64,000 nucleotides of DNA from Trueperaceae bacterium (GCA_965213705.1 OZ243913.1:640001-704000), one strand, 5' to 3'. Positions 38,455 through 51,811 are shown, counted from the first letter of the stretch. Made by a program: numbers and translations. The notes: a model not told the origin generated them from the sequence alone.

Positions 38455-41286
38455 TTAGCGGCGGACTCGAGCGGGCCGAATCAACCCGAACTCCAAAGCC
38501 AACTCCGGGTTGTCGCGTTTTAGGGCCGTCATGCGCCGCCGGTACGACCAAAACTCGACGGCGACCGAAACCGTGTTGACGAGGTAGATGACGGCCAACG
38601 CGACGAGGTCCGTCCTCAGCGACAAACCCACACCGATGTTCCACGCGTAAAGGTGGGACAAGGTGTCCAGGCCGACGAGCGCCCAGGGAACCAGCAGCAG
38701 CAAACCCCACACCTCGTCCGCCAAACCGCTGCCCGGCACGAGCAGCGCGAGCACGTGGTAGGCCCAGGTGCGCGGCGCGTTGCGCACCCAGCGAAGCCGA
38801 GGGACAAACAGCCACACGAAGGTTACGGCGACCAGGACTAAAAACAAAACGACCAGGGGCGCCCACAGGGTCGTCGCCAAACCGGCCGGGCGTGCGGCCA
38901 TCAAACCCGACCAGGGGTTGACGAACACCCCGGCCACGGCCCCGCTCCAGTCGCCCGCTCGCGCTACTTGCAGGTCTTGCGAGCTTGGCACGGCCAAAAG
39001 AGGCGTGCCGGGTCGGTAAGCCCGCTGAAAGGCGAACAGGTCGGTCGTGTCTTCGTCCAGGTTGTACCTCGCCTCGGGCAGCCTGGACAGCTCGGTGGCG
39101 CGGCGGTAGAAGGTGTCGTCGCCGGTCAGTGCGCCCAGGTTGTTCAGGGCGGGTGCGAAGTCTTCAGCCGCGTCGTAGCGGGTGCGGGCGCGGTCCTCGT
39201 CGCCTGCTACTTGCGCCGCGTAACCCCTTACGAAGTCGCCGCGCGTCCCGGCGAGCGGCGCGTCTGCGTAGCTCTGGGCCGCGGCGCTCGCGAACGTACC
39301 CGACCCGAGGGCCGCCACGTCGTCCGCTCCCCGGTAACCGGACGCCAGCCCGGCCATGAGCAGCGCCCCGGCCAGCAACATCAGCAAGACGACCTTTTCG
39401 GTAAGGCTGTAAAAACGCATGATGAAAATTCGCGACACAGGGCTGACCGAGCGGTTCAACAAACGACGCCGCTCAAAGTTCACGCTTTGCGCCCGCCAGT
39501 ATTTGGCCGCTAGCGTAAAGTGCAGGGCCAGCACGGTAGCCAGCAACGCCAGGGCGCTGTACCAGCCCGAACGCCCGAGAAAGCGGGCGGCCGCCGCCGG
39601 CGGTGCCAGCCTCAGCCGGCCCCGCCCGAGGTCGCGCCAGCGGTCGGCCTCGAGTCCTTGCCCGTTTTGGCGCAGGAGGTCTGCGTAGTCCCGCAGCGCG
39701 CGGCCCACTGCGGGCACCTCGGGCGCGGCGAAGTAGGCCAGCCACGGTGCCCAAAAGCCGGCGCGCCCTAAGTCCTCAGCGGCAAGTGCCTCTTGAAAAG
39801 GCTGCAGCGGAAAGTTATAGGCCTCGTGCAAGGTCAGGTCGCGCAGCAGCCTCGGGTCGTAACCGCGGGCGGCGAAGTCTCGGAGCGCCTTGTCGGCTGC
39901 GAGGTTCGCCAAGTCCGGCTCGCCCAGCTCGAGCAGCGCGCGGCTCAGTCCGGCCGCGTCGTAAAAGGTCTCGGCGCGTTCCACCGCGGCCGCAAAGGCG
40001 CTCGTTGACTCGGGCGCGTTCAGTGTTTGCCCCACGCGCAGGTAGAGCCACGGGTTGGTCGGGTCTTGGGCCAAGCGGGCCGCGGGGTCTTCGCCCTGCG
40101 CCTCGGCCCGCAACCAGCCGAACAGCGCCGAGGTGGGGTCGAACACCACCGGCTCCGGGGTGCCGCTTGACAACGTCACCGTTTCGGTCTCGGTCGTCAC
40201 CGTGAGCCCGTCCGCGGCGGGGCTCAGCCCGGTGACTTGACTGGGCAGCGCGAGGCGGTCTTGCACCACGCCGGTCGCCAAGTCCAGGGTCAGCAGGCTG
40301 TTGCCGTGTCCCACGTAAACCGCGTCTGAATGGGTCAGCAACCCGCTCGTTTCACCGCTCTCGGGTGGAAAAGTCAGGGTCCAGAGAACCTCGTCGTCGC
40401 CCCGAGCCACCACAGCGTCATTTTCCAAGGCAACCTCGTCGGGGACGGAACGCTGCGCGCTCGGCGTGGGTGCCGGAGAAGGGGCGGGCGCCTCGGTTGG
40501 GAGGGTGTTCTCCGGCGCAACATCGTCCGGTTGGGGCGACGCCGGCGTAGCGGGTGTCTGCTCGAGGGGTGTTCGCTCGAGGGTCGCGCCGGGTTGTGAG
40601 TCTTCTTGAGGTGCGGTTTCGTCCGGCGTTGGGGACGGCGCTGCGGCTCGAGCTGAGGGGGTGTCGGCTGGTGGGGTGTCGGCCGGTACAGTCTCATTCA
40701 GGCCGGGTTCGTTCAGGCCGGGTTCATTCAAGCTGGGTGCGTTCGGGTCGGTCTCGGTGGTGTCGGACCCAGGGGGGTCAGACTCGGCTGGACCTGTCTC
40801 GGCCGGACCCGTCTCAGTTGGAGCCACCTCAGCCGGAGGGGCGGGCGTGACCGTCGACGTTTCTTCGCGGCTCGTCACCTCGACCTCGAACCGTGCGCTC
40901 AAGGTGTCGCCCCGGACAGTCAGCTGCCAGCGTCCCGGCGTGCCAAGTCGTGTGGTGTAGGTAAGGTCGCCTTGGGCGTCGGTTTGCACGTCCTCGACTA
41001 TATTTTCAGCCTGCAGTCCGGGCGCGGCTCCGTCGGGTTCGTTCGTCAGGGTCAGGGTGTAACCGGTTTCCGGAACCAGCCCCGACGCCGTGACGGTGAG
41101 GGGGTCGCCCGCACTCAAGTTGAGGTCGCTGAGCTTGATAAGGGGCAGCGACTGTGCTCGAGCGAAACCGCTTGTCAGGACGAGGCTGCCGGCCAAGCTG
41201 CAAACTAGGCCGTAAACCAAGCCGTAAACGAGGCTACAAGTGAATACACAGCGCAAAAGTTTGGGCAAACCGGTGGTGCGAACCAT
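38455..41286 (-). CDS. Large membrane protein with Pro/Thr/Glu-rich linker and TPR-like segments
   Basis: Long ORF; signal-like N-terminus, low-complexity linker, ALNNLG/ARYNL motifs, several C-terminal TM helices. Confidence 0.7.
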   Translation of the reverse strand: MVRTTGLPKLLRCVFTCSLVYGLVYGLVCSLAGSLVLTSGFARAQSLPLIKLSDLNLSAGDPLTVTASGLVPETGYTLTLTNEPDGAAPGLQAENIVEDVQTDAQGDLTYTTRLGTPGRWQLTVRGDTLSARFEVEVTSREETSTVTPAPPAEVAPTETGPAETGPAESDPPGSDTTETDPNAPSLNEPGLNEPGLNETVPADTPPADTPSARAAAPSPTPDETAPQEDSQPGATLERTPLEQTPATPASPQPDDVAPENTLPTEAPAPSPAPTPSAQRSVPDEVALENDAVVARGDDEVLWTLTFPPESGETSGLLTHSDAVYVGHGNSLLTLDLATGVVQDRLALPSQVTGLSPAADGLTVTTETETVTLSSGTPEPVVFDPTSALFGWLRAEAQGEDPAARLAQDPTNPWLYLRVGQTLNAPESTSAFAAAVERAETFYDAAGLSRALLELGEPDLANLAADKALRDFAARGYDPRLLRDLTLHEAYNFPLQPFQEALAAEDLGRAGFWAPWLAYFAAPEVPAVGRALRDYADLLRQNGQGLEADRWRDLGRGRLRLAPPAAAARFLGRSGWYSALALLATVLALHFTLAAKYWRAQSVNFERRRLLNRSVSPVSRIFIMRFYSLTEKVVLLMLLAGALLMAGLASGYRGADDVAALGSGTFASAAAQSYADAPLAGTRGDFVRGYAAQVAGDEDRARTRYDAAEDFAPALNNLGALTGDDTFYRRATELSRLPEARYNLDEDTTDLFAFQRAYRPGTPLLAVPSSQDLQVARAGDWSGAVAGVFVNPWSGLMAARPAGLATTLWAPLVVLFLVLVAVTFVWLFVPRLRWVRNAPRTWAYHVLALLVPGSGLADEVWGLLLLVPWALVGLDTLSHLYAWNIGVGLSLRTDLVALAVIYLVNTVSVAVEFWSYRRRMTALKRDNPELALEFGLIRPARVRR

Positions 41287-41554
41287 GAAAAGCCTCCCGT
41301 GACTCACCGCGTATTATAAGGGAACGTCTCTGAACGGTAAGATACCCAGGCCCCGCCGAGGGTGGCCGTTTTTGTCAGCGCGGAAGTCAGCGCAGAAAGC
41401 AGTCAAAACCCCTTGAAGTAGCGAAAAAACGTTTTCTCGGGTTCGGCCCAGCGATTTCATCTCGTACGTTTTGTCGGTAGCTTCAACGGCTCAGGTGTGC
41501 CGAAAAGAGGGAAACTTCAACCCCGGGGCCCGGCGGGACTGGTATACTTGCGCA

Positions 41555-42262
41555 ATGCAGTCCGGCACCTGGGAACGCTTAGCCTTGCCTTTCGGCCAGG
41601 ACGCGCTCGAGTGGCGCGTCTTAGAGGTCAAAACGGGGGACGACGCGACCGACCAAGCCAGGGTTCGGCCGCAACTCCGCTTTGAGCGGGTCGTGGCGCG
41701 GCTCGACGAAACTCTTACCCCAGCCGGTTGGTCGAACCGGTACGTGGGTTTGGGTATAAACGCTCTTGCTTGTGAATTGACGCTGGAGGGCGTGACCAAG
41801 TCGGGCGTCGTCGCGCTGAACGGTGCGGGTTCAACGGTCTTTTTCACCGTGTGCGTCCAAGACGCCCTCGTCTACGCCGCCGAGCTGTTCGGGTTGAAGC
41901 CGCCCGCCGACCCCCACCTCGTTTACTGGGTGGATTATGACCCCGAGGCCGGCGTGCCCTTATTCGAGCCCGACCTCGCCGCAGTCCACGCCGAGAACGC
42001 CGCCGAGACCTTTGCGGAGACCGGCCTTGGGTCGTCCGTTTCCCCCTCTCGTGGGCAACCGCCCACCGACGAGCCGCCCGCTCCAAAACCGGCCGGCCAG
42101 CAGGCCATAGACCGTCTTGTCGAACGCCTGCGCGGCGAGGGCAAGGGCTTAGAAGTCGCCAAGCTCGTCACCACCTACGGCGGTTACGGCGACGACCCCG
42201 AAGCAGCCAAAGAACTGTACTCGCAACTGCGCGCCCTGCTGCTCAAGGCTCCGCCCTCGTGA
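41555..42262 (+). CDS. Rad52/Rad22-like (DdrA-related) DNA-binding protein
   Basis: LALPF...LEWRV, V..RLDE.L.P.GWS, C.LTLEGVTK; TATACT 6 nt before ATG. Confidence 0.6.
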   Translation: MQSGTWERLALPFGQDALEWRVLEVKTGDDATDQARVRPQLRFERVVARLDETLTPAGWSNRYVGLGINALACELTLEGVTKSGVVALNGAGSTVFFTVCVQDALVYAAELFGLKPPADPHLVYWVDYDPEAGVPLFEPDLAAVHAENAAETFAETGLGSSVSPSRGQPPTDEPPAPKPAGQQAIDRLVERLRGEGKGLEVAKLVTTYGGYGDDPEAAKELYSQLRALLLKAPPS

Positions 42263-42278
42263 TACTTTCGGGGGCAGC

Positions 42279-43028
42279 GTGATAAAAGTCGTCGCCATCG
42301 GCGACGTTCACGGTCAGTGGGCCGAGGTGTGGCAAGCCCTCAAGGCCGCGACCGCCTGCGACGCCAAGTTGGCCCCGACCGAGGCCGTCGTCGAGGGCCG
42401 TTTTCAGGTGCTGTTCATCGGCGACCTCGTCCACTACAAAGACACGCTCGCTTACGCTCGAGCGGTCGGCGAAGAGCCCTACGACTCTACAAATCCCGAC
42501 CACCTGCGCCGCGCCGCCAAAGCGCAAGTGCGCGAACTGTACCGCTTTAAGGACTACGTCGACAAAGCGAACGGCAACGTGACCATCATCATGGGCAACC
42601 ACGACGAGGCGGCGCTGACCCACAACTTTGAACTCAGCACCCGCGGCGGCCTGAAACACGACGAGTTCAACGGCAAAAAAGGCGGTACCGCCCTGCCTGA
42701 GGACTTGCAAACCTGGATGCAAGCCTTCAAACGCGAGCAGCTTCTTTACAACGTACATTTCGCCCACGCCGGACCGCTACCCGGAATGCAGTACTTCGAC
42801 GACTTTTTTTATCACGACGCGGACACTAAAAAGTGGTGGTACAACAAACCCCAAATCTTCGCCCACACCGGTCACCGCTTCGGCGTCTACGGCCATACGG
42901 TGATGGAGGAGGGCATCTACGTCGACAAAGACAACCGCTTCGCCATGATAGACGCGCTTTCCCACCGACAATTTTTCGAGATGTTTTTGGACGAAGAGCG
43001 CTTGGACTACAGGGTGATGCAGTTTTAG
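42279..43028 (+). CDS. Calcineurin-like metallophosphoesterase
   Basis: IGDVHG, IGDLVH, GNHD, HAG, GHT. Confidence 0.88.
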   Translation: MIKVVAIGDVHGQWAEVWQALKAATACDAKLAPTEAVVEGRFQVLFIGDLVHYKDTLAYARAVGEEPYDSTNPDHLRRAAKAQVRELYRFKDYVDKANGNVTIIMGNHDEAALTHNFELSTRGGLKHDEFNGKKGGTALPEDLQTWMQAFKREQLLYNVHFAHAGPLPGMQYFDDFFYHDADTKKWWYNKPQIFAHTGHRFGVYGHTVMEEGIYVDKDNRFAMIDALSHRQFFEMFLDEERLDYRVMQF

Positions 43029-43134
43029 GCTCCGGTTTGCTCAAGACCGTCTCAACTTCGGCACCATGACACGAGTGCCGTCAGCCCACCTGCAGAAAGC
43101 TTGAAGTAGAGTGTGGACGCGACGACGGCAACAC

Positions 43135-43320
43135 CAGAAACTTTAGAAATTTTACGCGGACATTTATCGCGCCGCGCTCACACACCAAACTCGAGCCCTT
43201 CGGCTAAGGAAACCTGTGCAAAAACTTGTAAAAGCAAAAACTGCGCAGTTTGGAGAAAGTCTTGTCGTAGACGTAGTTTTTGAGACGGCCGAAAAAAGGG
43301 AGCATCGACTTGAGGAAGTT
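43135..43320 (+). pseudogene. Internally deleted relic of a DUF4160/DUF2442 pair
   Basis: Nucleotide similarity to 45779-45830 and 45905-46040 (AGAAACTTTAGAAAT..., CTTGTAA.AGCAAAAACTG..., GTAGTTTTTGA) with two deletions. Confidence 0.8.
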
Positions 43321-43428
43321 GGGGCTCGAGCCACTTGCCGACTTCAAATTTGCTTAGCGTTGAGGGCTCGAGCGGCCGTAGGGCGAGTACAGTCTGGTGG
43401 GTTTTGGGAAGGTGTTGAGGGCTCGAGG
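43316..43428. repeat. Array spacer repeat copy 1
   Basis: GGGCTCGAGCCACTTGCCGACTTCAAATTTGCTTAGCGTTGAGGGCTCGAGCGGCC...GTTGAGGGCTCGAG; CTCGAG at 43325, 43367, 43422. Confidence 0.9.
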
Positions 43429-43437
43429 TATGTCGTC

Positions 43438-43722
43438 CTACTTTTTCCCGTAGGCAGAGTCATGGTTAGGGTGAAGCGAAACGAACTTTAAGACATCTCC
43501 ATCACGCTTTACCACAGCACGGCATTTTTGAGTAACCCGAAGGGTGTAAGCATCCTCCGCGAGAGACTTAATGCTTTCCCACCGCAAGCCCTTGTCACGG
43601 TAAACTTGCGTCCAAGAAAGTTGTTTGAGTTTGCGCAGCGTTTTGAAAAAGGCCAGCAGTTCAACTTTTTCAAGCTCGAGCAAATCCGCCTGAAACTGAG
43701 GTCGGTTGAGGTCGAACTCCAC
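43438..43722 (-). CDS. Putative RelE/ParE-fold toxin
   Basis: 94 aa basic protein, YTLRVTQKCRAVV...HDSAY pattern; coupled to upstream small gene. Confidence 0.65.
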   Translation of the reverse strand: MEFDLNRPQFQADLLELEKVELLAFFKTLRKLKQLSWTQVYRDKGLRWESIKSLAEDAYTLRVTQKCRAVVKRDGDVLKFVSLHPNHDSAYGKK

Positions 43723-44012
43723 TACTCGTCCAACGGCTCGCCGTGCTCAGCTTCCCACCTTTTGCGAATCTCAGTCTCGAAGCTGTCCAAGTCCGTGACC
43801 TGAGTAGGATGTTCCCTAGCCCACTCGAGACCTTCAGCTATTTTGCTTTTGGCGGGTTCTTGGTGTAACCACAGTTCGTTGTCTGGAATAACCGTTGCCG
43901 TCTTGATAACCCAAACACCCTCTTCCGGCGTATCTACAACAACGGTGCGTCCGGCGTATTCCTTACCTAACGAGAGCTGTCCACTCTGACCTATCGTTTT
44001 TACTTGTGACAC
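43722..44012 (-). CDS. Putative antitoxin with AbrB-like N-terminus
   Basis: VKTIGQSGQLSLGKEYAG; acidic C-terminus; overlaps toxin start. Confidence 0.65.
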   Translation of the reverse strand: MSQVKTIGQSGQLSLGKEYAGRTVVVDTPEEGVWVIKTATVIPDNELWLHQEPAKSKIAEGLEWAREHPTQVTDLDSFETEIRKRWEAEHGEPLDE

Positions 44013-44094
44013 ACAAACCTACTTTCATGCTACAGGATAGCACGATTTAAACACATTAGAGATGTGATGGAGAGCTGACGAGATTGTGGAACTC

Positions 44095-44231
44095 ACGGCT
44101 CTTACCAACTTTGGGATTTGCTCAGCGTTGAGGGCTCGAGCGGCTATAGGATGATAATTGGGTGAAGTTGGGGATATTGGGGGCTCGCGGCGCTTGACAA
44201 CTTTGAACTCACGCAAGCAGGAGCTCGAGCC
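44095..44231. repeat. Array spacer repeat copy 2
   Basis: TTTGCTCAGCGTTGAGGGCTCGAGCGGCTATAGGATGATAATTGGG...GGGGGCTCGCGGCGCTTGACAACTTTG. Confidence 0.85.
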
Positions 44232-44500
44232 TAAGGAAAATAGCGATACATGTCTTTGCGGTGCAGCGCCCGCTTGAACACCACGGTGTCGTCTTCTACC
44301 GTAAAACCGACCCGGTAATCGCTAACTCAAATGCGGTAGGCGGCGTCAGCATTCTTCAGCTTTTTCAAGTTGGGTACGTCGGACAAACTATCCAAGGACG
44401 GGAAAGTATCGAAAGCCAACGTCTTGATGCGCTCGTAAGTTGCGTTACCCTGCAAGCGTTTTAAGTTTTTGACAAAACTTGCGGCGTAGACCGTTTTCAC
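44231..44500 (-). pseudogene. RelE/ParE family toxin with internal stop
   Basis: Manual translation VKTVYAASFVKNLK...AYRI*VSDYRVGF...LHRKDMYRYFP; TGA at 44327-44329. Confidence 0.85.
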
Positions 44501-44691
44501 TCGGCAAGCGCCGCGAGGGCTTGCTCGAGCGTCAACACTTCTCCTTTATCAGCTTCTTGTATCGCTCGCAAAAGGCAAACGTCTTCTATGACCTCGAGAA
44601 GCTCTTCGTACACGTCTATGGGAAGAAGTACGTGGGTTTTGTTGCCTTCTTCGTCATGGAGAAAGGAAGGGTCTCGCGCAGTGTCAACCAT
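44497..44691 (-). CDS. Antitoxin partner of the RelE/ParE pseudogene
   Basis: Small acidic protein; TACAAT 7 nt before ATG; stop overlaps toxin GTG. Confidence 0.75.
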   Translation of the reverse strand: MVDTARDPSFLHDEEGNKTHVLLPIDVYEELLEVIEDVCLLRAIQEADKGEVLTLEQALAALAE

Positions 44692-44714
44692 TTGGATCAT
44701 TGTAGCAGGCTTTG

Positions 44715-44829
44715 AGTTTTGGGTGGGCTCGAGCCGCTTATCGGCCTCAAGTTTGCTTAGCGTTGAGGGCTCGAGAGTCCATAAGGTAGTTAGGTCGGGT
44801 GAGGCTGGGAGGTGTTTGGGGCTCGAGCC
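44715..44829. repeat. Array spacer repeat copy 3
   Basis: CTCGAG at 44728, 44770, 44822 with conserved TTTGCTTAGCGTTGAGGG. Confidence 0.9.
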
Positions 44830-45065
44830 TACAACTGGTCCTGCGGTTCAGGCTCGGTGTTTTTAACTTTACCAAGCGCACGCTCAAACTTTTCACGGTT
44901 TCCCCGCTTGGCACGTTCCTCTAGATACTCGGTCGTCATGAGCGCCGCCATTTTTTCCGCCAACGCTGTAGCGACGAGTTGGTTGATGGAAACCCCCTCT
45001 TGCTTGGCGAGTTCCCGTGCCTGCTTGTGTAGGGATTCGGGTAGTCTCAGACTGATGGTGCTCAC
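44829..45065 (-). CDS. Ribbon-helix-helix antitoxin (HicB-C-terminal-like)
   Basis: MSTISLRLPESLHKQARELAKQEGVSINQLV. Confidence 0.85.
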   Translation of the reverse strand: MSTISLRLPESLHKQARELAKQEGVSINQLVATALAEKMAALMTTEYLEERAKRGNREKFERALGKVKNTEPEPQDQL

Positions 45066-45490
45066 AGCGCTCCTATCTTTTGCAGCAGCGTCTTAGGGCT
45101 GACGACTTCGAGCCCGAACGTCTCGACACCGGAAAAATCCTTTTCATTATAGGTCACAATAAAATTACAGGCTGCTTCCACCGCCAGCTCGAGCACCATG
45201 TCGTTTTTGGGGTCTTTGAGAAAAGGCCGCCACAGAAAGAAGATGTCGTGCTTGTTGGCAACTGAACAAAGGTAATCGAGGATGTCGTCAATATCTTCAT
45301 GATTTAGGCCTATATTCTCGCTCAGTCTTTTAGCTACCTCTTCGTATTCCAGCGCGAGTGGCACAGAGAGGTTGATTGCGAAGGTATCCGTCAGTCCTAT
45401 CAGCGTCAAAAGTTTGTAGGAAGCGCCTCGGCTCGAGCGCAGCGCGGAGATGAGGACGTTTGTGTCGAGAACGACTTGGTAGGGGTTCAT
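45062..45490 (-). CDS. PIN-domain toxin
   Basis: VVLDTNVLISAL, DPKNDMVLELAV, IVTYNEKDF. Confidence 0.9.
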   Translation of the reverse strand: MNPYQVVLDTNVLISALRSSRGASYKLLTLIGLTDTFAINLSVPLALEYEEVAKRLSENIGLNHEDIDDILDYLCSVANKHDIFFLWRPFLKDPKNDMVLELAVEAACNFIVTYNEKDFSGVETFGLEVVSPKTLLQKIGAL

Positions 45491-45534
45491 CTGGTATCAA
45501 ATACAATACCACGAAGGTAGTTCTCAGGTGTGTT

Positions 45535-45637
45535 TTGGGTTGGGCTCGAGCCACTTGCCAACTTCAAATTTGCTTAGCATTGAAAGCTCGAGCGGCCATA
45601 GGGTGATGATAGTCCGAAAGGTTGGAGGCTCGCGACG
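45535..45637. repeat. Array spacer repeat copy 4
   Basis: GGGCTCGAGCCACTTGCCAACTTCAAATTTGCTTAGCATTGAAAGCTCGAGCGGCCATAGGGTGATGATAGTC. Confidence 0.9.
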
Positions 45638-45668
45638 TATAAATTTGTGAAAAGGCTAAACTACGTTC

Positions 45669-45929
45669 ATGCCTTCAATCTGCATTTTCTACGGCATCGT
45701 CATCTACATGTACTACAACGACCACAATCCACCCCACTTCCACGCCGAATATACTGAATTTGAGGCCGTCTATACAATAGAAACTTTAGAAATCCTACGT
45801 GGAAATCTGCCGCGCCGCGCTCATGCACTCGTCGTAGAATGGGCTACCTTGAACCGGACAGAACTGCTGGACAACTGGCGCAAAGCAAGAGCGGCTGAGC
45901 CGCCCGCTAAACTCGAGCCCCTTGACTGA
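45669..45929 (+). CDS. DUF4160 family putative toxin
   Basis: MP.I..FYGIVIYMYYNDHNPPHFHAEY; TAAACT 6 nt before ATG. Confidence 0.88.
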   Translation: MPSICIFYGIVIYMYYNDHNPPHFHAEYTEFEAVYTIETLEILRGNLPRRAHALVVEWATLNRTELLDNWRKARAAEPPAKLEPLD

Positions 45930-45937
45930 GGAGATAC

Positions 45938-46216
45938 ATGCGACAACTTGTAAGAGCAAAAACTGTGCAACCTAGAGAGAGTTTTGTCGTAGATGTAGTT
46001 TTTGAAACGGACGAAAAGAGGAGCATTGACCTCGAGAAGTATCTGCAAGGCCCCGTTTTCGAAGCCGTGCGGAGTAACCCCGAGCTGTTCCAAAGTGTAA
46101 GGGTAGAGCGAGGGATTCTCACGTGGGGTGAAGGTGAGTTGTTGGCCGACATCGACCCTGACGTGCTTTATTACAATTTGGTTCCTGCACGTCTCGAGGA
46201 GGTTGAAGCGGCTTAG
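45938..46216 (+). CDS. DUF2442 family putative antitoxin
   Basis: GPVFEAV, LTW...DIDPDVLY; follows DUF4160 gene; GAGGAG RBS. Confidence 0.85.
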   Translation: MRQLVRAKTVQPRESFVVDVVFETDEKRSIDLEKYLQGPVFEAVRSNPELFQSVRVERGILTWGEGELLADIDPDVLYYNLVPARLEEVEAA

Positions 46217-46355
46217 GAAGATTGGGGCTCGAGCCACTTCCCGACCGAAGAGTTTGCTTAGCGTTGAAAGCTCGAGCGGCCATAGAGTGATTGTAGTCTG
46301 GTGGGGTCGGGGAGTTGTTGGGGGCTCGAGACACTTGCCAACTTCAAATTTGCGC
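46217..46355. repeat. Array spacer repeat copy 5
   Basis: CTCGAG at 46228, 46271, 46325; the unit restarts (ACACTTGCCAACTTCAAATTTG) after the third site. Confidence 0.9.
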
Positions 46356-46367
46356 TGAGTAAATTTT

Positions 46368-46637
46368 CTACGTCAACCTCTTATAAACATCCTTGCGGTG
46401 TCCGACGAGCATCAGAACGATGATATGTCCTTTGGTGTCTACAGAGTAGATGACTCGGTAATCGCCCACACGTAAGCGGTACAGTTGCTTAGCACCCCTG
46501 AGCTTTTTCGTGTTCGGCCCAAGGGGATTCTCGGCAAGCTGCCGGGTTCGCTCGACGATAAGTTGTACAGTCTCGGCAGGCAGCTTTTGCAGCGCTTTTT
46601 CGAACGAGCGGCGGGCGCTCAGGCTATAACTTGCCAC
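46368..46637 (-). CDS. RelE/ParE family toxin
   Basis: KKLRG...YRLRVGDYRVIYSV...VGHRKDVY. Confidence 0.92.
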   Translation of the reverse strand: MASYSLSARRSFEKALQKLPAETVQLIVERTRQLAENPLGPNTKKLRGAKQLYRLRVGDYRVIYSVDTKGHIIVLMLVGHRKDVYKRLT

Positions 46638-46821
46638 TGCGTTTCAAGTCGCTTACAAGTTCGTCAAAGGGAAGGGTATCTTCTTCCCCGAGTTCGGCGA
46701 CCACAGCCAAGTCGTGCAGGTCCTCGAGAAGCTCTTCGTACACGTCGATGGGAAGCAGTACGTGGGTTTTGTTGCCTTCTTCGTCGTGAAGAAAGGAAGG
46801 GTCTCGGGCAGTGTCGACCAT
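46624..46821 (-). CDS. Antitoxin partner of the RelE/ParE toxin
   Basis: 65 aa acidic protein; N-terminus identical to 44497-44691 product; TACAAT upstream. Confidence 0.78.
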   Translation of the reverse strand: MVDTARDPSFLHDEEGNKTHVLLPIDVYEELLEDLHDLAVVAELGEEDTLPFDELVSDLKRSGKL

Positions 46822-46844
46822 TTGGATTATTGTAGCAGGCTTTG

Positions 46845-46910
46845 AGTTTTGGGTGGGCTCGAGCCGCTTACTCCTTTTGGACTTGCATAAAATGAGGGTT
46901 CGCAACCGAC
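46845..46910. repeat. Array spacer repeat copy 6 (partial)
   Basis: GGGTGGGCTCGAGCCGCTTA...TGAGGGTTCGC. Confidence 0.65.
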
Positions 46911-46930
46911 GTTTTAGAAGCCCTGAACAC

Positions 46931-47281
46931 CTATAATCCCAGACAGTAGCAAACAGCTTCCTCAACTTCTTCAAGTATTCTTTCGGAAAGCCCACCTGCT
47001 GCTTGGGCTGGAAACCTCGCAGCGTCGACGGAGCGTAACTGAAAGCCGAGAAAAACGGTCTCGAGTGGTAACCCACTTTCGCTGGTCGGCACCCGCACAT
47101 TCGTTCGGTAATCTCGTTTGACGTTGTCGCCCTTTGTACCGACAACAACCGTGACCACCAGCGGGCGTGAGTTGATTTCGTCAATCGAGAGCACAAGCAC
47201 CGGCCGACTTCCCGCTTGTTCACGCCCCGTCGTAGGGTTCAAGTCGACAAAATAGATTTCGCCACGTTTTGGATGCGTCAC
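46931..47281 (-). CDS. MazF/PemK family toxin
   Basis: RGEIYFVDLNPTTGREQAGSRPVLVLS, QLRSVD..R. Confidence 0.92.
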   Translation of the reverse strand: MTHPKRGEIYFVDLNPTTGREQAGSRPVLVLSIDEINSRPLVVTVVVGTKGDNVKRDYRTNVRVPTSESGLPLETVFLGFQLRSVDAARFPAQAAGGLSERILEEVEEAVCYCLGL

Positions 47282-47493
47282 AAGCCGCCAAGTCCGTCTT
47301 CTTCAGTTAGGCGGAACTCGACATCTAATGCACTCAGTTCTCGTTGAATATCGGGGTCGGCAACCATTTCGTCTAAGTCACTGCCAACGTCTTTTTGCAA
47401 GGTAGAGGCGAGCCGTTCAAGCAGCCACAGTTTGTCCTCATGCGTGAGGTTGGTGATTTGTTTTTCTAAGTCGAGTAAAGCTCGAGAGGCCAT
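47278..47493 (-). CDS. Putative antitoxin of the MazF/PemK toxin
   Basis: 71 aa acidic protein; starts at the ATG inside repeat copy 7, 6 nt after TATAAT. Confidence 0.75.
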   Translation of the reverse strand: MASRALLDLEKQITNLTHEDKLWLLERLASTLQKDVGSDLDEMVADPDIQRELSALDVEFRLTEEDGLGGL

Positions 47494-47570
47494 AGGATGA
47501 TTATAGTCGGGTGGGGTTGGGGAGGGTGTTGAGGGTTCGAGGCGCTTGCTAATTTTGAATTTGTGCGCCG
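47477..47570. repeat. Array spacer repeat copy 7
   Basis: AAAGCTCGAGAGGCCATAGGATGATTATAGTCGGGTGGGGTTGGGGAGGGTGTTGAGGGTTCGAGGCGCTTGCTAATTTTGAATTTG. Confidence 0.88.
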
Positions 47571-48002
47571 CAATCTTCAAAATAAATTTGAGGTATTATT
47601 TCGGAAATGTTCGACCCTGTTCAAGAGTTTGATTTGCTTTCAAAACCAGGAAATTTGGGGTTCTATTCACGTTGTGAAATCACTACCATCTTCTTAAAGA
47701 AAAAAGGAGAGAAACAGCCGAAAAATTTGTATACGCTGTGCGTTTTAGAAGAATCCACCTTACCTAAAAACATCTTTACCTGTATCACGCCAAAATTGCA
47801 GTCGATTACGGCGGAGGTATCTTTAGGTATCGTCCGACATTACGAATCTCTGGAAAACACTCGAGCAAAGTACGTGCAACTTTTCCAGAATAACACTTGG
47901 GAAAACGAAGGTGAATTTCTTGGACTGTCGAAGCCAAAACCTCTGCCAAAACAGTTTGTGCCCTCAACAGAAAATACGCCACTCAATTCAGTTCTAAAGA
48001 AT

Positions 48003-49079
48003 TAGGACTTACGCACACAACTGCATAGGAATAGCAGGATGTTTGAGCTGCTGTCTCATGTAGTTGTCGAGTTGTCCAAACTTAAGCTGATAAACAGTGG
48101 TGCCGAGTCGAGTAGCAAAGCGCTTAAGCTGCGCCCAGACCAAGAAAGAACAAGCGATGTGGTTTCTCAGGGCTCTGGACATGCGGCATTGACAACCTTC
48201 AAGACCCGTTACTTGTTTGGCTTCACGGTGAAACTGCTCAATCTTCCAGCGAACGCCGCAGTGATGTTTCACAACGTCCGAGTCGTCCTGAGTCATGTCA
48301 TTGGTGACAATACAATCCGTGCGCTCGGTAGAGACCGCTAGCCGGAACAGTTTCATACGGTGACCTTTGGGCATCTTTTTGAGGTGAATCGTCTTGCCTT
48401 CTCTCAGTTCTTCGTCGCTCCAGTCTAAGCTGTCAACACGCTGATGTTTTCTCTCACCCTCGCTGTCATCAACGTGACGGTTCGTTTTGATGGGGCAGTA
48501 GTAGATTTTCTCTAACGACTCGATATATTTGATAACTTGCATGGAGGCGTACCAGCTATCCATCAGCACCGTCTTGAAAGAGAGTCTCTTGCCGTGCAGA
48601 ACGTTGTCGAGCATTTCCAGCATGTGCTTGATTTTGCTCTGCTCATCCCCCTCGGGGTCATACACCCGAAAGTCAATCACCCAGAACTGCTGCGTCTCAG
48701 GATTGACGTAGACGCACGTTACTACCCCGATGCCGTAGATGACCCGCTTTTCGTTCCCGCTCCACTGCCGCCTAACTAAGCGTGAATGGCGGCTATGGCG
48801 TTTGTCCAGCACCACATCGTCAAACAACACATAGCCCTGTTCGCTCAGCACCACATCCTCTCGCACGTTCTCCCACAGGGTTCTCGGTGTCAGCGTATCC
48901 AGCCGTAAAAAGCGATTCATGCTGTCGTGGCTATAACGCTCGCTATGGTCTGCCAGGTACGTCTGTGTGTAGTTGATTTGGCTACTAATCAAAAACTGAC
49001 AGTAGTCCAACCGGTGTTGCTGATAGTCCATAGCCCATGCCAGCAAGTCTTTTCATTTGAAGCGTGTGCGTAAGTCCTA
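48003..49079 (-). mobile_element. IS701-family insertion sequence, 1077 bp
   Basis: Perfect 16 bp TIRs TAGGACTTACGCACAC / GTGTGCGTAAGTCCTA; GAAT duplicated at 47999-48002 and 49080-49083. Confidence 0.92.
48009..49046 (-). CDS. IS701-family DDE transposase
   Basis: YCQFLISSQINYT, FDD.VLDK, LMDSWYA, RWKIEQFHREAKQ. Confidence 0.92.
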   Translation of the reverse strand: MLAWAMDYQQHRLDYCQFLISSQINYTQTYLADHSERYSHDSMNRFLRLDTLTPRTLWENVREDVVLSEQGYVLFDDVVLDKRHSRHSRLVRRQWSGNEKRVIYGIGVVTCVYVNPETQQFWVIDFRVYDPEGDEQSKIKHMLEMLDNVLHGKRLSFKTVLMDSWYASMQVIKYIESLEKIYYCPIKTNRHVDDSEGERKHQRVDSLDWSDEELREGKTIHLKKMPKGHRMKLFRLAVSTERTDCIVTNDMTQDDSDVVKHHCGVRWKIEQFHREAKQVTGLEGCQCRMSRALRNHIACSFLVWAQLKRFATRLGTTVYQLKFGQLDNYMRQQLKHPAIPMQLCA

Positions 49080-50283
49080 GAATAATTTCGACAGTGGCTC
49101 TTACGTGCTGGAATTCTTTGCTGAAGACAAAAGTGAATATCAAACCTTTTTATATGACAATGCCCTCTTGAATAAAGTAAGTGAAGTGATTCGAGGCTAC
49201 CTTCCAATTGACATTGCTTATATCAGGGAACGTATTGGCAATCTAATATTTCAGTTTCCAATAACACTTGTAGCAGTCGGAGAGAGTACAAACGCCGAGG
49301 GGAATACAATTCTATTCAATGTCGCTTGGCATCCAAAATTGAAAGAATTACCGGCGTGTGGTGTTGTAGTTCAGAGTGAATTAGATGGATTATTACTCAG
49401 TTTTGCTCAACAATCAAATTTTACAGAACTTAACAGTTCTGTTCAGGTCGGTTCAACAGACGCACAGGTAGAATCATTTATTTACGATAAGTCTACGTCC
49501 TTAGATACTTCGTACTTTTCGCGGTGCAGCTATAAAGGGCTTTAATTTAGGTACAAGACTTATCAGTCCAGAAAAACGAAGTGTGAAGGTACCAAATGAG
49601 AATCAACCGGGAGATACTGTTTTTGAAATCGAGGTGGCATCAAAGGTAACCCAAGGCCAAATATCGTCTGGGGACTACCACTTTCGTATCCAATCAAGGA
49701 TTTATGACTCAGAGAGAGAAAGGCTAGCACGTGAACGAATTTTTGTTCAGTATGGAAGAGGCACTGATGATAGGATAAAGGCGTTAGAAGATGTACGATT
49801 ATTGATTCAAAAGTATGGTGAAGAAGGTGCTTATCTTTGGGATCCGTATTTATCTGGTAGAGACCTGATTCAGACACTTTTTTTCTGTAAAACTGCACAT
49901 GTTCCGCTAAGAGCTATTGGTTCGAATAAGGTTGTGGGCTTGCAGAAAAAAGACAAAGCGTGTAACGCAAAAAATTCAGCATCTCCTTGGCCTGATTGGG
50001 TGAAAGAACAAGTAAAACTATTAGAGGGTAGTAGTAATCATGTTGGTCTGAACACGGAATTTCGATGTAAATGTGGTAATGCGGGTTGGGGCTTTCACGA
50101 CAGATTTTTGATTTTCCCAAGAATGCGTGAGCCTTTAGCTTGGTCGTTAGGTATTTCTGTCAACCAATTAGGCAAAGAGCACCACATATTGCAGCGTGTG
50201 GATAATGCACAAAATATCCTAGATGCGTTTAATGACTTATGGTCTGTGCTAAAAAATCCCAACTGCCTAATTTGGAAAAAGCT

Positions 50284-51798
50284 GTGACGTCAAGAGATTA
50301 TCAAGAGTTTATCGAGATTGTTATGGAGCGAGTTGATTCGATTGAACTTGACGAGGAATTTATAGAGATTGATTCTGCAAGCTCCAAGTTAGAATTAGAG
50401 GATTTCTTTCGTGGCAGTAATCTGGACTTCATCCATGATTTGCTTAATCGCAAGCTCGGGATGCTCTTCAAATATCAAGCTTCAAGTGTGAAGTTTCCTA
50501 TTTTGCCTGAAGATGTCAAAGAGGCGGCTAAATTTTTGGTCAAGAGCAGGAGCATGTTTTGGGACGCGCTAGCTATGAGGGATGCAAAGCAACTATTGAT
50601 TGCACTGATAATCTTTAGGCGTTTTGAGCTTGATTACACACTGCTTTTTGACTCTTCACAGCTAGACCAAGAGCAACGCTCCTGGTTGGTCGGCTGTTTG
50701 ATGAAGCTTTTATCGCTCAAAACAAGTGTTGATGTTGAAGTAAACGCAAACGTGCCAGAGTATGAAAAGAAATTGCTTCAGAGTTATCAAGTTGGGTTTG
50801 AAAACCTAGACATAAGAAGAGTTTACGAATTTATAGAGGCGCTAGAGAGAAGCAATATTTTCTACAGCCACTACTTGAGTGATGAGGCGCGCAAAGTTCT
50901 TTATTATGTTGATGTCGATCAATTCGATTGGCAGCTACAGCAGAAAACGGAGCTGTTAGAGATTATCGCTTTTTTGAAAAATTTATCGTTTGGGGCCAAA
51001 CTCTTTCTCTTGAACAAAAAGCGTAATTTCAATGAATGGACTTTGTTTGAGACTGTCAGGCAACTACTTCAAAAGAAAAACTCTAATTCTTGGGACCAAG
51101 AGAATATTGAGATTCTTTCCACTGGTATAGAACGTGTTTATGAGAAAAACTCTGTATTTTTTTCGGATATGAACAGTTATTTTTTAGGGAATATCGTGTA
51201 CAATAGCGCGTTAGGAAAAGTGCTTGCAACAATAGAATTGAAACACTTCAAAGAATTCATAAATAGAATCGAATTTAGTAAGTACAAAGATGTAAACAAG
51301 CTTCGTGCCTTCTGCGAATTACTTTCGTGCCTTGACAAATACGACTCTGATACACGCACCATTTTGTTCTGCCGAAGTATTTACAAGAAGTGGGAGATTT
51401 TTCTTCAGAGTAAGTATGGTAACGGAGAGTATCTTTTTAAGCCTACAGTTACAGATTACTTTTGTGTTCTTCTAGGTCATCTCCAAATAAAGCTTGACAC
51501 TCGACGAAAAGCAGTGAGAGCCGTTGGCAAGATTGTTCAATCCCTCGAGGAAATTCAATCCAGGTGGTTTAAAAACGCAATTGAAAGAACCTCTTTCTAT
51601 TTTGTTCAGCTATCGAAACTATATCTATTGAGCTTCCTATGGCGAGAGCAGGACTTTGAATTTGCATCGAATTCGCGCGTCAAAAATAGCTTGACTGGCT
51701 TTTTATCAGACAAACGGTTTCATATATTAAATCGAGGCATAGGCGAAGGAGACTACTACTTGGAGATGTCTAAAAACTTTGGCCTCGAAAAAAAGTAA
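50284..51798 (+). CDS. AT-rich hypothetical helical protein (~500 aa)
   Basis: Long intact ORF; GTG at 50284 overlaps the upstream stop (GTGA). Confidence 0.75.
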   Translation: MTSRDYQEFIEIVMERVDSIELDEEFIEIDSASSKLELEDFFRGSNLDFIHDLLNRKLGMLFKYQASSVKFPILPEDVKEAAKFLVKSRSMFWDALAMRDAKQLLIALIIFRRFELDYTLLFDSSQLDQEQRSWLVGCLMKLLSLKTSVDVEVNANVPEYEKKLLQSYQVGFENLDIRRVYEFIEALERSNIFYSHYLSDEARKVLYYVDVDQFDWQLQQKTELLEIIAFLKNLSFGAKLFLLNKKRNFNEWTLFETVRQLLQKKNSNSWDQENIEILSTGIERVYEKNSVFFSDMNSYFLGNIVYNSALGKVLATIELKHFKEFINRIEFSKYKDVNKLRAFCELLSCLDKYDSDTRTILFCRSIYKKWEIFLQSKYGNGEYLFKPTVTDYFCVLLGHLQIKLDTRRKAVRAVGKIVQSLEEIQSRWFKNAIERTSFYFVQLSKLYLLSFLWREQDFEFASNSRVKNSLTGFLSDKRFHILNRGIGEGDYYLEMSKNFGLEKK

Positions 51799-51811
51799 TC
51801 CAAGGCTTACC

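Follow-up and report, generated by a model that had tools for sequence, protein, structure and literature searches.

A toxin–antitoxin gene array in a Trueperaceae genome, reordered between relatives and built on repeat linkers that end at a genome-wide palindrome

The closest described counterparts of the locus reported here are the pdif modules of Acinetobacter plasmids, integron cassette arrays and the palindrome HIP1 of cyanobacteria. The pdif/dif modules, acted on by XerC/XerD, are small and often carry toxin–antitoxin (TA) genes, hold no recombinase of their own, and are moved by host enzymes at short bounding sites; pdif sites are 28 bp long with inverted arms and alternate in orientation. 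The present array likewise comprises small, often TA modules with short bounding sites and no recombinase gene in the module, but its sites have non-complementary arms and all point in one direction. It resembles integron arrays (sedentary chromosomal integrons and CALIN, attC clusters without an integrase) in its gene–repeat–gene organization, the similarity of repeats within the array, the large number of TA cassettes, some lying in reverse, the close packing of genes and sites, and an order and content that vary between close relatives. Unlike integrons, this genome lacks IntI, the sites lack the imperfect palindrome with R and L boxes and form no hairpin, the linkers combine two unit types in variable number, and the junction motif is a palindrome found throughout the genome. 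This palindrome, GCTCGAGC, resembles HIP1 (GCGATCGC): both are GC-rich, measure 8 bases but often reach 10, and are distributed evenly at many times the expected frequency. It differs from HIP1 in sequence and in phylum (Deinococcota), and a literature search found no published description of it. For HIP1, evidence has been cited of recombination, site-specific or illegitimate, and of a repeat module inserted precisely within the palindrome; the portion of the source available to us describes no link to TA cassette arrays (PMC4390886).

The array occupies positions 43113–47566 of a 64,000-nucleotide stretch (the window; GCA_965213705.1, OZ243913.1:640001-704000) of a Trueperaceae genome, here G000. 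It consists of six TA modules, M1 to M6, and a relic, M0, with seven copies of a composite repeat between them (linkers c1 to c7; Table 1). Alternating A units of ~42 nt and B units of ~42–55 nt make up the linkers, each unit terminating in a G-rich stretch and CTCGAG; the seven copies and the alternating subunits (~42 and ~52–55 bp) described in the earlier note were confirmed. Modules lie in both orientations, as that note had recognized, with M4 on the + strand and the remainder on the - strand. The repeat units share one orientation throughout, an arrangement no less compatible with a directional site than with joining at a symmetric palindrome.

Table 1. Coordinates of the array features and of the right flank, counted from the first letter of the window
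Feature	Positions	Strand	Composition
M0, eroded DUF4160/DUF2442 module relic	43113–43330	+	left cut by genome rearrangement; right end G-rich + CTCGAG
Linker c1	43331–43427	+	A 43331–43372, B 43373–43427
M1	43438–44012	-	antitoxin 43722–44012, toxin 43438–43722
Linker c2	44099–44229	+	A 44099–44140, B 44141–44189 (terminates CTCGCG), variant A' 44190–44229
M2	44231–44700	-	RelB-like antitoxin 44497–44700, ParE-like toxin pseudogene 44231–44500
Linker c3	44734–44827	+	A 44734–44775, B 44776–44827
M3	44829–45490	-	PIN_3 toxin 45062–45490, RHH/HicB-like antitoxin 44829–45065
Linker c4	45551–45634	+	A 45551–45592, short B 45593–45634 (terminates CTCGCG)
M4	45669–46216	+	DUF4160 45669–45929, DUF2442 45938–46216 (Pfam)
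Linker c5	46234–46353	+	A 46234–46276, B 46277–46330, partial A 46331–46353
M5	46368–46824	-	ParE toxin 46368–46637, RelB-like antitoxin 46624–46824
Linker c6	46864–46904	+	single degenerate A unit; profile E 8.8e-10
M6	46931–47493	-	MazF/PemK toxin 46931–47281, upstream partner 47278–47493
Linker c7 and array end	47487–47566	+	B 47487–47541 (terminates TTCGAG), partial A 47542–47566
VPA1262-family gene in pieces (flank outside array)	47607–51798	+	low GC (0.40); broken by IS4-like element
IS4-like element in flank	about 48002–49079		transposase 48009–49046, - strand

The relic M0 matches the DUF4160/DUF2442 module at 45774–46021 with 80% identity in two pieces. To its left lies a 26.5-kb block that in G001, the only genome of the same genus compared, is situated 78 kb away from the array. 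The partial A unit forms the array terminus in G000, G001 and one further strain; the VPA1262-family flank beyond it is missing from G001, and contig depth over its insertion sequence is doubled.

RelB-like, ParE, PIN_3 with RHH, PemK/MazF and DUF4160 with DUF2442 families were identified above Pfam cut-offs in neighbouring short genes, which makes these modules type II TA systems. The earlier description of six TA pairs plus a relic is upheld for the array, with one correction: the ParE-like toxin of M2, the second of its kind, carries an in-frame TGA at 44327–44329 (the G001 orthologue is intact, 89 aa). Neither M1 gene has a significant Pfam or NCBIfam family match. M1 is called a TA pair from context only, that is, from its size, its overlapping-gene layout and its conservation as a two-gene unit at 70–85% in eight other Trueperaceae genomes (nine in total); the N-terminus of its antitoxin appears AbrB-like by eye. 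The 5' part of M5 is 93% identical to M2 over a shared stretch of 160 nt. The stop codons of M2 (44231–44233) and M3 (44829–44831) are present where the earlier note had placed them and lie one base from CTCGAG. The upstream partner of M6 has its ATG and first codons inside the B unit of c7, and G001 uses the same start.

The earlier note took the repeat to punctuate the modules, and an nhmmer profile detected it in seven copies (E 1e-37 to 9e-10), all within positions 43302–47565, the next-best match in the 4,246,949-base genome having an E value of 0.13. The repeat is confined to the array locus far beyond chance and is not dispersed in the manner of REP or MITE elements, since all significant profile matches fall in one locus. 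Among 41 relatives only G001 carries it, making two genomes with this particular repeat, and none was found in six orthologous loci of other genera. The linkers measure 40–150 nt and are 60–95% identical among themselves. Short-homology joining alone leaves unaccounted for how unrelated TA genes first gained the same A/B linkers.

A gene–repeat–gene layout rich in TA pairs, with repeats similar within the array as in the sedentary chromosomal integrons described in the available part of PMC4889954, could be the remnant of an integron, an attC cluster that has lost its integrase. This origin is scarcely credible in light of several searches. No pairs of R''/R' boxes (RYYYAAC...GTTRRRY, 40–150 nt apart on one strand) occur at 43100–47620, in agreement with the earlier remark that the repeats lack the attC layout. 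Folding of nine linkers as DNA on both strands gave z-scores of -2.07 to +1.88 against shuffles and no unit-spanning stem, and an Rfam scan of 42500–52500 returned no match at E ≤ 1. The best IntI (TIGR02249) score in the whole genome was 34.1 bits against a 265-bit cut-off, and the four weak matches are all far from the array. An integron was accordingly rejected on the lack of IntI, attC box pairs and a hairpin.

In G001 the same repeats accompany four cassettes reordered as M6-M1-M4-M2; M3 and the M5 toxin were not found anywhere in that genome, and the numbers of A and B units between modules differ from those in G000. In both species M2 is flanked by A, B and A' on the left and by A on the right (0.93), the next B being non-orthologous, and the short B of c4 travels with M4 (0.95 identity). 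Units move together with their cassette as far as a unit boundary. One G001 module is a mosaic of M2 and M5, and some units are closest to units of their own genome. Contigs from one sample add further arrangements: departure from the array at 44734, one base past CTCGAG; departure of a co-occurring strain at 46353, 23 nt inside the A unit of c5; and an intact M0 joined to M1. Exact G001 contigs are present in the same sample at low depth. The earlier note had envisaged a platform that captures or shuffles genes by another mechanism and at another kind of site. None of the three outcomes that it had named as refuting this was observed: the repeat is confined to the locus, the one congeneric genome departs from the gene order, and attC features are absent. 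This comparison, in which order is not fixed between relatives, supports a shuffled non-integron array, whereas a capture platform of that kind stays conjectural: neither a recombinase nor an excised circle nor any instance of capture was seen.

Differences between G000 and G001 at the right ends of M1 (44048) and M6 (inside B) lie away from CTCGAG, as do the outer rearrangement breakpoints (the 26.5-kb block, an island next to uvrA2 and, in the second array described below, the right side of a replacement). These breakpoints and the 46353 contig, all off the palindrome, run contrary to the view that the host joins cassettes there.

On the - strand a TAnnnT-like box is followed, six bases on, by an ATG in 10 of the 13 B units that G000 and G001 have between them; in other arrays the corresponding units hold a leaderless start and 19–25 codons. 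With a -10-like box, an ATG lacking a leader and a short run of codons that stops at the palindrome, B units and their counterparts look like gene heads. These features, together with the start of the M6 gene at a B-unit ATG in both species, would be expected if the repeats were selected regulatory modules (a shared promoter or leader, or antisense starts) in an essentially static array whose species differences are deletions only. We consider this highly improbable: M6-M1-M4-M2 cannot be derived from M1...M6 by deletion alone, M2, M3 and M5 each carry a -10-like box beside the start within the cassette, and a single operator would not be expected to serve antitoxins from different families. 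A consensus promoter scan also gave no match in B units (3 matches in total versus 2.5 by chance).

CTCGAG is the core of a palindrome whose usual form is GGCTCGAGCC. Its 8-base version, GCTCGAGC, is the commonest 8-mer of the genome (2879 observed versus 129 expected from base composition), evenly spread at 37–84 per 100 kb, and in the window GGCTCGAG occurs 58 times versus 4.06 in shuffles. By over-representation and genome-wide spread it is a highly iterated palindrome of the HIP type. Because of this abundance the CTCGAG anchor alone is not array-specific; CTCGAG density is 6 per kb in the array versus 2.1 per kb in the genome (8868 sites). Endpoints of repeat alignments fall within 6 nt of CTCGAG in 43 of 128 cases (9 loci) versus 11.2 expected, a test biased by the tendency of BLAST alignments to stop at a conserved CTCGAG island and by the non-independence of endpoints.

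A second TA array in the same genome (G000:C1:3620274-3624172) has its own linkers bounded by CTCGAG, and there G000 and G001 are 94% identical through one CTCGAG inclusive and unrelated beyond. TA clusters in two further genera contain other local repeats in which homology begins at the palindrome; all six copies of the G054 repeat begin at GGGCTCGAGCC, whereas their left flanks are unrelated. Local repeats of a similar kind are present at another G001 locus and in TA clusters of G004, G066 and G067. In M1 homologues of other genera, the palindrome is not at a fixed bounding distance, a further point against joining there. New here are the hyper-abundance of the anchor as a genome-wide palindrome, the second TA array and other-genus TA clusters with repeats starting at that palindrome, and units that look like gene heads.

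The palindrome may be incidental, with RecA-dependent recombination, unequal crossing-over and gene conversion among 75–95% identical linkers and paralogous modules explaining all differences. The length and identity of the linkers, the stretch shared by M2 and M5 with its G001 mosaic, the variation in unit number as predicted for unequal exchange, and the units closest within their own genome, suggestive of conversion, all point this way. We nevertheless find it rather doubtful as a full account, because it cannot put unrelated TA genes between the same linkers and leaves unexplained both the array-2 junctions with one non-linker side and the palindrome start of homology in every G054 copy.

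Alternatively, a dedicated site-specific recombinase supplied in trans could excise and insert cassettes at an asymmetric core (G-rich arm plus CTCGAG, about GTTGRGGGCTCGAG), integron-like in action with another site and enzyme. The same oriented core ends every unit and cassette, genes face both ways while sites face one way, and stop codons lie one base off the core. The array-2 junction falls exactly at CTCGAG, a contig leaves the first array at 44734, similar boundaries of a G-rich stretch plus CTCGAG recur in arrays of three genera, and four tyrosine-recombinase-like genes are present in the genome, all away from the arrays. Against this, no recombinase was recognized among the ORFs examined in the flanks of arrays 1 and 2 in G000 and G001 (the array-2 flank ORFs of G001 were listed, outside the family scan); among the ORFs examined at 41000–50000 none was seen, tyrosine recombinases included, consistent with the earlier reading of the window. 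Inverted arms of the dif, pdif or loxP kind are likewise absent from 27 and 18 CTCGAG sites in arrays 1 and 2, respectively, where 0–7 of 13 positions are complementary, as in random DNA. Sites centred on GCGCGC with complementary arms number just four in G000; they are scattered and form no array. The extended core has about 10–15 further genome copies without arrays, and several breakpoints lie away from it. Such an enzyme is possible but, in our estimation, unlikely.

A CTCGAG-specific nuclease whose compatible ends are rejoined in new combinations would suit junctions at a classical 6-base restriction-type palindrome, and the available part of PMC4390886 raises directed cutting of HIP1 for precise cyanobacterial insertions. 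Symmetric ends would permit segment inversion, yet the units all lie in one orientation, and the genome offers 8868 CTCGAG sites, so this explanation is very improbable. A search for the XhoI family (PF04555) gave no match, and control genomes likewise gave none. Quite tentatively, GGCTCGAGCC might be a universal joint for modular gene shuffling in Trueperaceae. A novel palindrome-directed activity, either a nuclease or a recombinase supplied in trans, would cut DNA there and join it again, building TA arrays and fusing portable promoter-and-start modules to new gene bodies; this would be the first demonstrable function for a hyper-abundant palindrome.

The reading we prefer, whose chances we judge to be about even, is that of an integrase-less TA cassette array with linkers ending at the palindrome, its cassettes likely gained, lost and reordered by host recombination and repair at these joints and at the ~100-nt linkers. 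As the commonest 8–10-base identity, the palindrome would be a preferred crossover for short-homology joining, and the longer linkers would permit RecA-type exchange, possibly following DNA uptake from related strains. The linkers themselves may be carried-along gene ends, the B unit representing a head (-10-like box, six bases, ATG, palindrome) and the G-rich side a tail, and TA pairs would persist because their loss is penalized. The data are explained no less well by ordinary host recombination at linkers and a genome-wide palindrome than by a dedicated system.

How gene cassettes originate and move without an integrase is an open question, and what hyper-abundant palindromes such as HIP1 do has been disputed for thirty years. 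The two questions meet in a Deinococcota palindrome and TA arrays whose repeat boundaries and some strain breakpoints fall on it. Several arrangements of one array coexist in a single sample. Together these features make the question testable. The locus also shows that cassette arrays rich in TA genes can arise without following the integron paradigm, a point relevant to the build-up of defence and addiction genes in chromosomes.

Array 1 of the Trueperaceae genome G000 (a single contig of 4,246,949 bases, 61% GC) is built of toxin–antitoxin (TA) modules parted by locus-specific linkers, has no integron machinery, and differs at the level of single cassettes between close relatives and within one sample. 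It is bounded by a metallophosphoesterase gene on one side and a low-GC island on the other (table), and the GC content of its region is 0.47–0.52 compared with ~0.62 in the surroundings. The gene-repeat-gene organization claimed in the earlier note holds: six two-gene modules and one relic (M0–M6) are separated by seven linkers composed of two unit types, A (~42 nt) and B (42–55 nt), in the strings A-B, A-B-A', A-B-partial A, lone degenerate A, and B-partial A. Each unit closes with a G-rich stretch and then CTCGAG or a version of it differing by one base, and so does each module at its right end. A profile of the seven copies matched only these seven in the whole genome (E 1.2e-37 to 8.8e-10; next match E 0.13), confining the repeat to array 1 in G000, so that the genome-wide scatter that was looked for is absent. 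A k-mer scan of the G000 genome for local repeat clusters returned eight: array 1, another TA array, two CRISPR arrays, one 114-nt pair, and three clusters lying within large ORFs.

Coordinates and content of the arrays and associated features (positions in the window, G000:C1:640001-704000, unless prefixed; G001 is the sole other genome of the genus)
Feature	Genome	Position	Content
26.5-kb block	G000	16925-43032	
Metallophosphoesterase gene	G000	42279-43028	
Array 1	G000	43113-47566	M0–M6
M0	G000		relic of DUF4160/DUF2442
M1	G000		gene pair, no significant family match
M2	G000		RelB-like antitoxin + ParE-like toxin with in-frame TGA
M3	G000		RHH antitoxin + PIN_3
M4	G000		DUF4160 + DUF2442, + strand
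M5	G000		RelB-like antitoxin + ParE
M6	G000		MazF + upstream partner
GCTCGAGC examples	G000	43190-46865	
M1 hexamer and start	G000	44012-44050	
M2 hexamer and start	G000	44700-44730	
M5 hexamer and start	G000	46824-46860	
VPA1262-family gene	G000	47607-51798	
IS4-like element	G000	~48002-49079	
Array 2	G000	C1:3620274-3624172 (L046 3244-7200)	antitoxin + PIN; DUF433; Fic + small partner; PIN + small antitoxin; antitoxin + MazF
CRISPR-like arrays	G000	C1:2200395-2202346; C1:4137635-4139936	exact 31–33-nt and 38-nt repeats, ~61 and 71 nt spacing
114-nt direct-repeat pair	G000	C1:3948610-3951978 (L047)	88% identical, around 3.2 kb of lower-GC DNA
Array 1 counterpart	G001	L017 6672-9640	M6, M1, M4, M2
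TA array	G054	L043 2700-8600	RHH + PIN; PIN; HTH + RelE-like; ParE-like; one IS
TA cluster	G004	L050 4900-6900	
TA cluster	G066	L051 4400-5800	
TA cluster	G067	L052 4500-5400	
TA cluster	G001	L053 2950-4200	

A -10-like hexamer lies 5–7 nt 5' of the antitoxin start codons of M1, M2, and M5, a position suggesting that these antitoxins may be expressed from leaderless transcripts; the M1 layout is kept in most of nine aligned genomes, G061 being the exception. The low-GC (0.40) VPA1262-family gene is in four pieces, split by an IS4-like element with twice the contig depth of neighboring sequence, and the stretch as a whole is absent from G001.

An integron or attC reading was rejected. The best match of the IntI model in the G000 genome scored 34 bits against a cut-off of 265, array 1 contains no RYYYAAC...GTTRRRY pairs at attC spacing, in single-strand folding nine linkers did no better than shuffles on either strand (z -2.07 to +1.88), and an Rfam scan of the array region gave no match. 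The attC features used in these tests are in part those given in PMC4889954. The repeats are thus not attC-like, as the earlier note had held, and a decayed integron is scarcely conceivable. A dedicated recombinase acting in trans on an oriented core of G-rich stretch and CTCGAG is tentatively possible: all units share one strict orientation, even though M4 runs opposite to its fellow modules, which speaks for such an enzyme, whereas off-core breakpoints and sites without inverted arms speak against it (the inverted arms of dif or lox-type cores are absent from the array sites, with 0–7 of 13 positions complementary). The G000 genome carries four tyrosine-recombinase-like genes, none of them near the arrays. 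A check of G000 for 32-bp symmetric sites gave no array built on these.

The palindrome in which the units end is abundant far beyond the array. GCTCGAGC is the commonest 8-mer of the G000 genome, with 2879 copies versus 129 expected from base composition, evenly spread at 37–84 per 100 kb and most often extended as GGCTCGAGCC; the commonest context of the palindrome is GG-CTCGAG-CC (475 copies). The window holds 58 copies of GGCTCGAG against 4.06 in shuffles, and the 27 CTCGAG sites within the 4.5 kb of array 1 amount to 6 per kb, compared with 2.1 per kb for the genome. Among the sampled loci the palindrome is also frequent in the genera coded g4 and g43 and rare in other genera. Based on its analogy with cyanobacterial HIP1, GCTCGAGC can be regarded as a HIP1-like hyper-abundant palindrome in a Deinococcota lineage; PMC4390886 mentions evidence that HIP1 takes part in site-specific and illegitimate recombination and that a repeat module has been inserted precisely at HIP1. 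The open-access literature searched yielded no description of the hyper-abundant GCTCGAGC palindrome or of TA arrays of the present kind. Cutting and rejoining at CTCGAG is improbable as the source of the joints. A search for the XhoI family found nothing, but since it found nothing in the control genomes either, it does not bear on this.

On the minus strand, 10 of the 13 B units of G000 and G001 carry a TAnnnT-like box and, six bases on, an ATG that continues as GCC/GTC GCT CGA GC. For M6 in both species, it is at this ATG that the gene upstream of MazF truly begins. The B unit thus looks like a portable gene head ending at the palindrome, comparable to the truncated antitoxin heads of other arrays, and the G-rich side of the units looks like a gene tail. 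A canonical sigma-70 promoter was ruled out, there being no consensus match at the B units; because the consensus promoter scan does not call them, leaving only the -10-like box, promoter activity is something we infer. A G-quadruplex role for the G-rich arm was dropped because only one of the B units meets the G3+ x4 motif.

Putative gene heads and tails recur in array 2, which directly follows polA. Its linkers are a distinct ~40–60-nt unit with CTCGAG on both sides, the 3' part of which is identical to the final MazF codons and similar to the G-rich ends of array 1 B units. On the minus strand, a second unit (~80 nt) reads as a -10-like box and a leaderless ATG with 19 N-terminal codons of the small antitoxin, and it stops exactly at the palindrome; one copy is the head of an intact gene and two are truncated heads. 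The array 2 of G001 is at another chromosomal position, not beside polA, and differs in content, so that both arrays (2/2) lie at synteny breakpoints between the two genomes. They share in array 2 a 1.8-kb block (94%), the right side of which is alike through one CTCGAG inclusive and unrelated directly beyond, where G000 continues with a linker and the MazF module and G001 with a 597-aa low-GC gene.

A similar pattern was found in other genomes. The TA array of G054 (genus g4) has six copies of a ~85–100-nt unit encoding a leaderless start and ~25 codons on the minus strand, homology beginning at GGGCTCGAGCC in all six with unrelated left flanks. Low-GC TA clusters in G004, G066, G067, and at another G001 locus contain related units in local pairs or triplets. 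Across genera g1, g4, and g42, the TA-cluster repeats begin at the palindrome and, on the minus strand, comprise a leaderless start and 19–25 small-antitoxin codons, truncated where the codons spell out the palindrome. At nine loci, 43 of 128 repeat-alignment endpoints fall within 6 nt of CTCGAG versus 11.2 expected. The hexamer, a conserved island in its own right, biases this test, which counts as support, not proof.

The array 1 repeat was matched in 4 of 41 genomes searched (G000 and 40 relatives); G001 is the only real match besides G000, those in G014 and G018 being short and weak, so the repeat is carried by two genomes only. The G001 array sits between lutC and the same uvrA paralogue. 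A fixed gene order was looked for in relatives; the modules of G001 are 81–91% identical to those of G000 and stand in the order M6, M1, M4, M2, with M3 and the M5 toxin absent from the entire G001 genome. Deletions alone do not account for the two orders. Unit strings differ as well, examples being B-A''-B in front of M1 and A''-B-A-B-A' in front of M2. Static regulatory repeats are a very improbable account of the linkers. Pairing of units between the two genomes shows that some move together with their cassette: M2 has kept its left-hand A, B, and A' and its right-hand A (0.93 identity), the B units that follow this right-hand A not being mutual best matches; M4 has kept its short B (0.95), and M6 has kept its B over the initial ~24 nt. 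The remaining units are closer to copies inside their own genome than across genomes, which suggests conversion.

The 26.5-kb block lies in G000 between lutC and the array, cutting M0, and in G001 78 kb away. None of the outer rearrangement breakpoints, outside the arrays, is at CTCGAG, and these were ruled out as palindrome joints. In six other genera, the orthologous site next to the uvrA paralogue has neither the repeat nor array proteins, and a pattern scan of genome contigs outside the genus found 0 stretches; a metagenome scan gave 8 loci, which are chance matches since the profile finds the repeat in none. M1 homologues in seven other genomes are solitary, and M1 cassettes in 9 genomes have no fixed palindrome boundary (the M1 tally of 14/128 genomes takes in the unpublished G049, used for no other claim).

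Array 1 is contained in two runs (X1, X2) of one sample, run X3 covering next to none of the stretch; these contig data show only presence and junctions. Contigs were matched to window 42000-52500 at a likeness threshold of 85, and those of the main strain cover the window throughout. One variant contig joins 43257 to 45990 and 46197 to 43309 (depth 22.5 and 83.6) and may be read as an intact M0 followed by M1. Another tracks M1–M2 and exits the array toward the uvrA paralogue at 44734, one base past CTCGAG (depth 135, shorter side 30), and a third contig exits within a partial A, at 46353 (depth 10.9 and 32.7, side 62). A partial A closes the array in G000, in G001, and in one further strain. 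Exact G001 contigs, matched to the G001 array (L017 5500-11500), are present at depth 2–15, and the G000 type is present at high depth. The sample therefore contains no fewer than three or four arrangements of the array, and with them two "species" and additional strains; the caveats are that some joints have short sides, that the likeness threshold was low, and that graph artefacts may arise at repeats.

The palindrome marks the repeat boundaries and is the exact position of two or more breakpoints between strains or species; the evidence for recombination is sequence comparison and contigs. Plain homologous recombination to which the palindrome is incidental is doubtful. We favor, with about even confidence, host short-homology joining at the palindrome combined with homologous exchange at the linkers, the cassettes carrying bits of their neighbors. 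As by far the commonest 8–10-base identity in G000, the palindrome would likely be favored as the point of short-homology joining, while homologous exchange would use the longer linkers, perhaps following the uptake of neighbors' DNA. Cassettes would take along heads and tails of earlier neighbors, and TA pairs would pile up because each resists its own loss.
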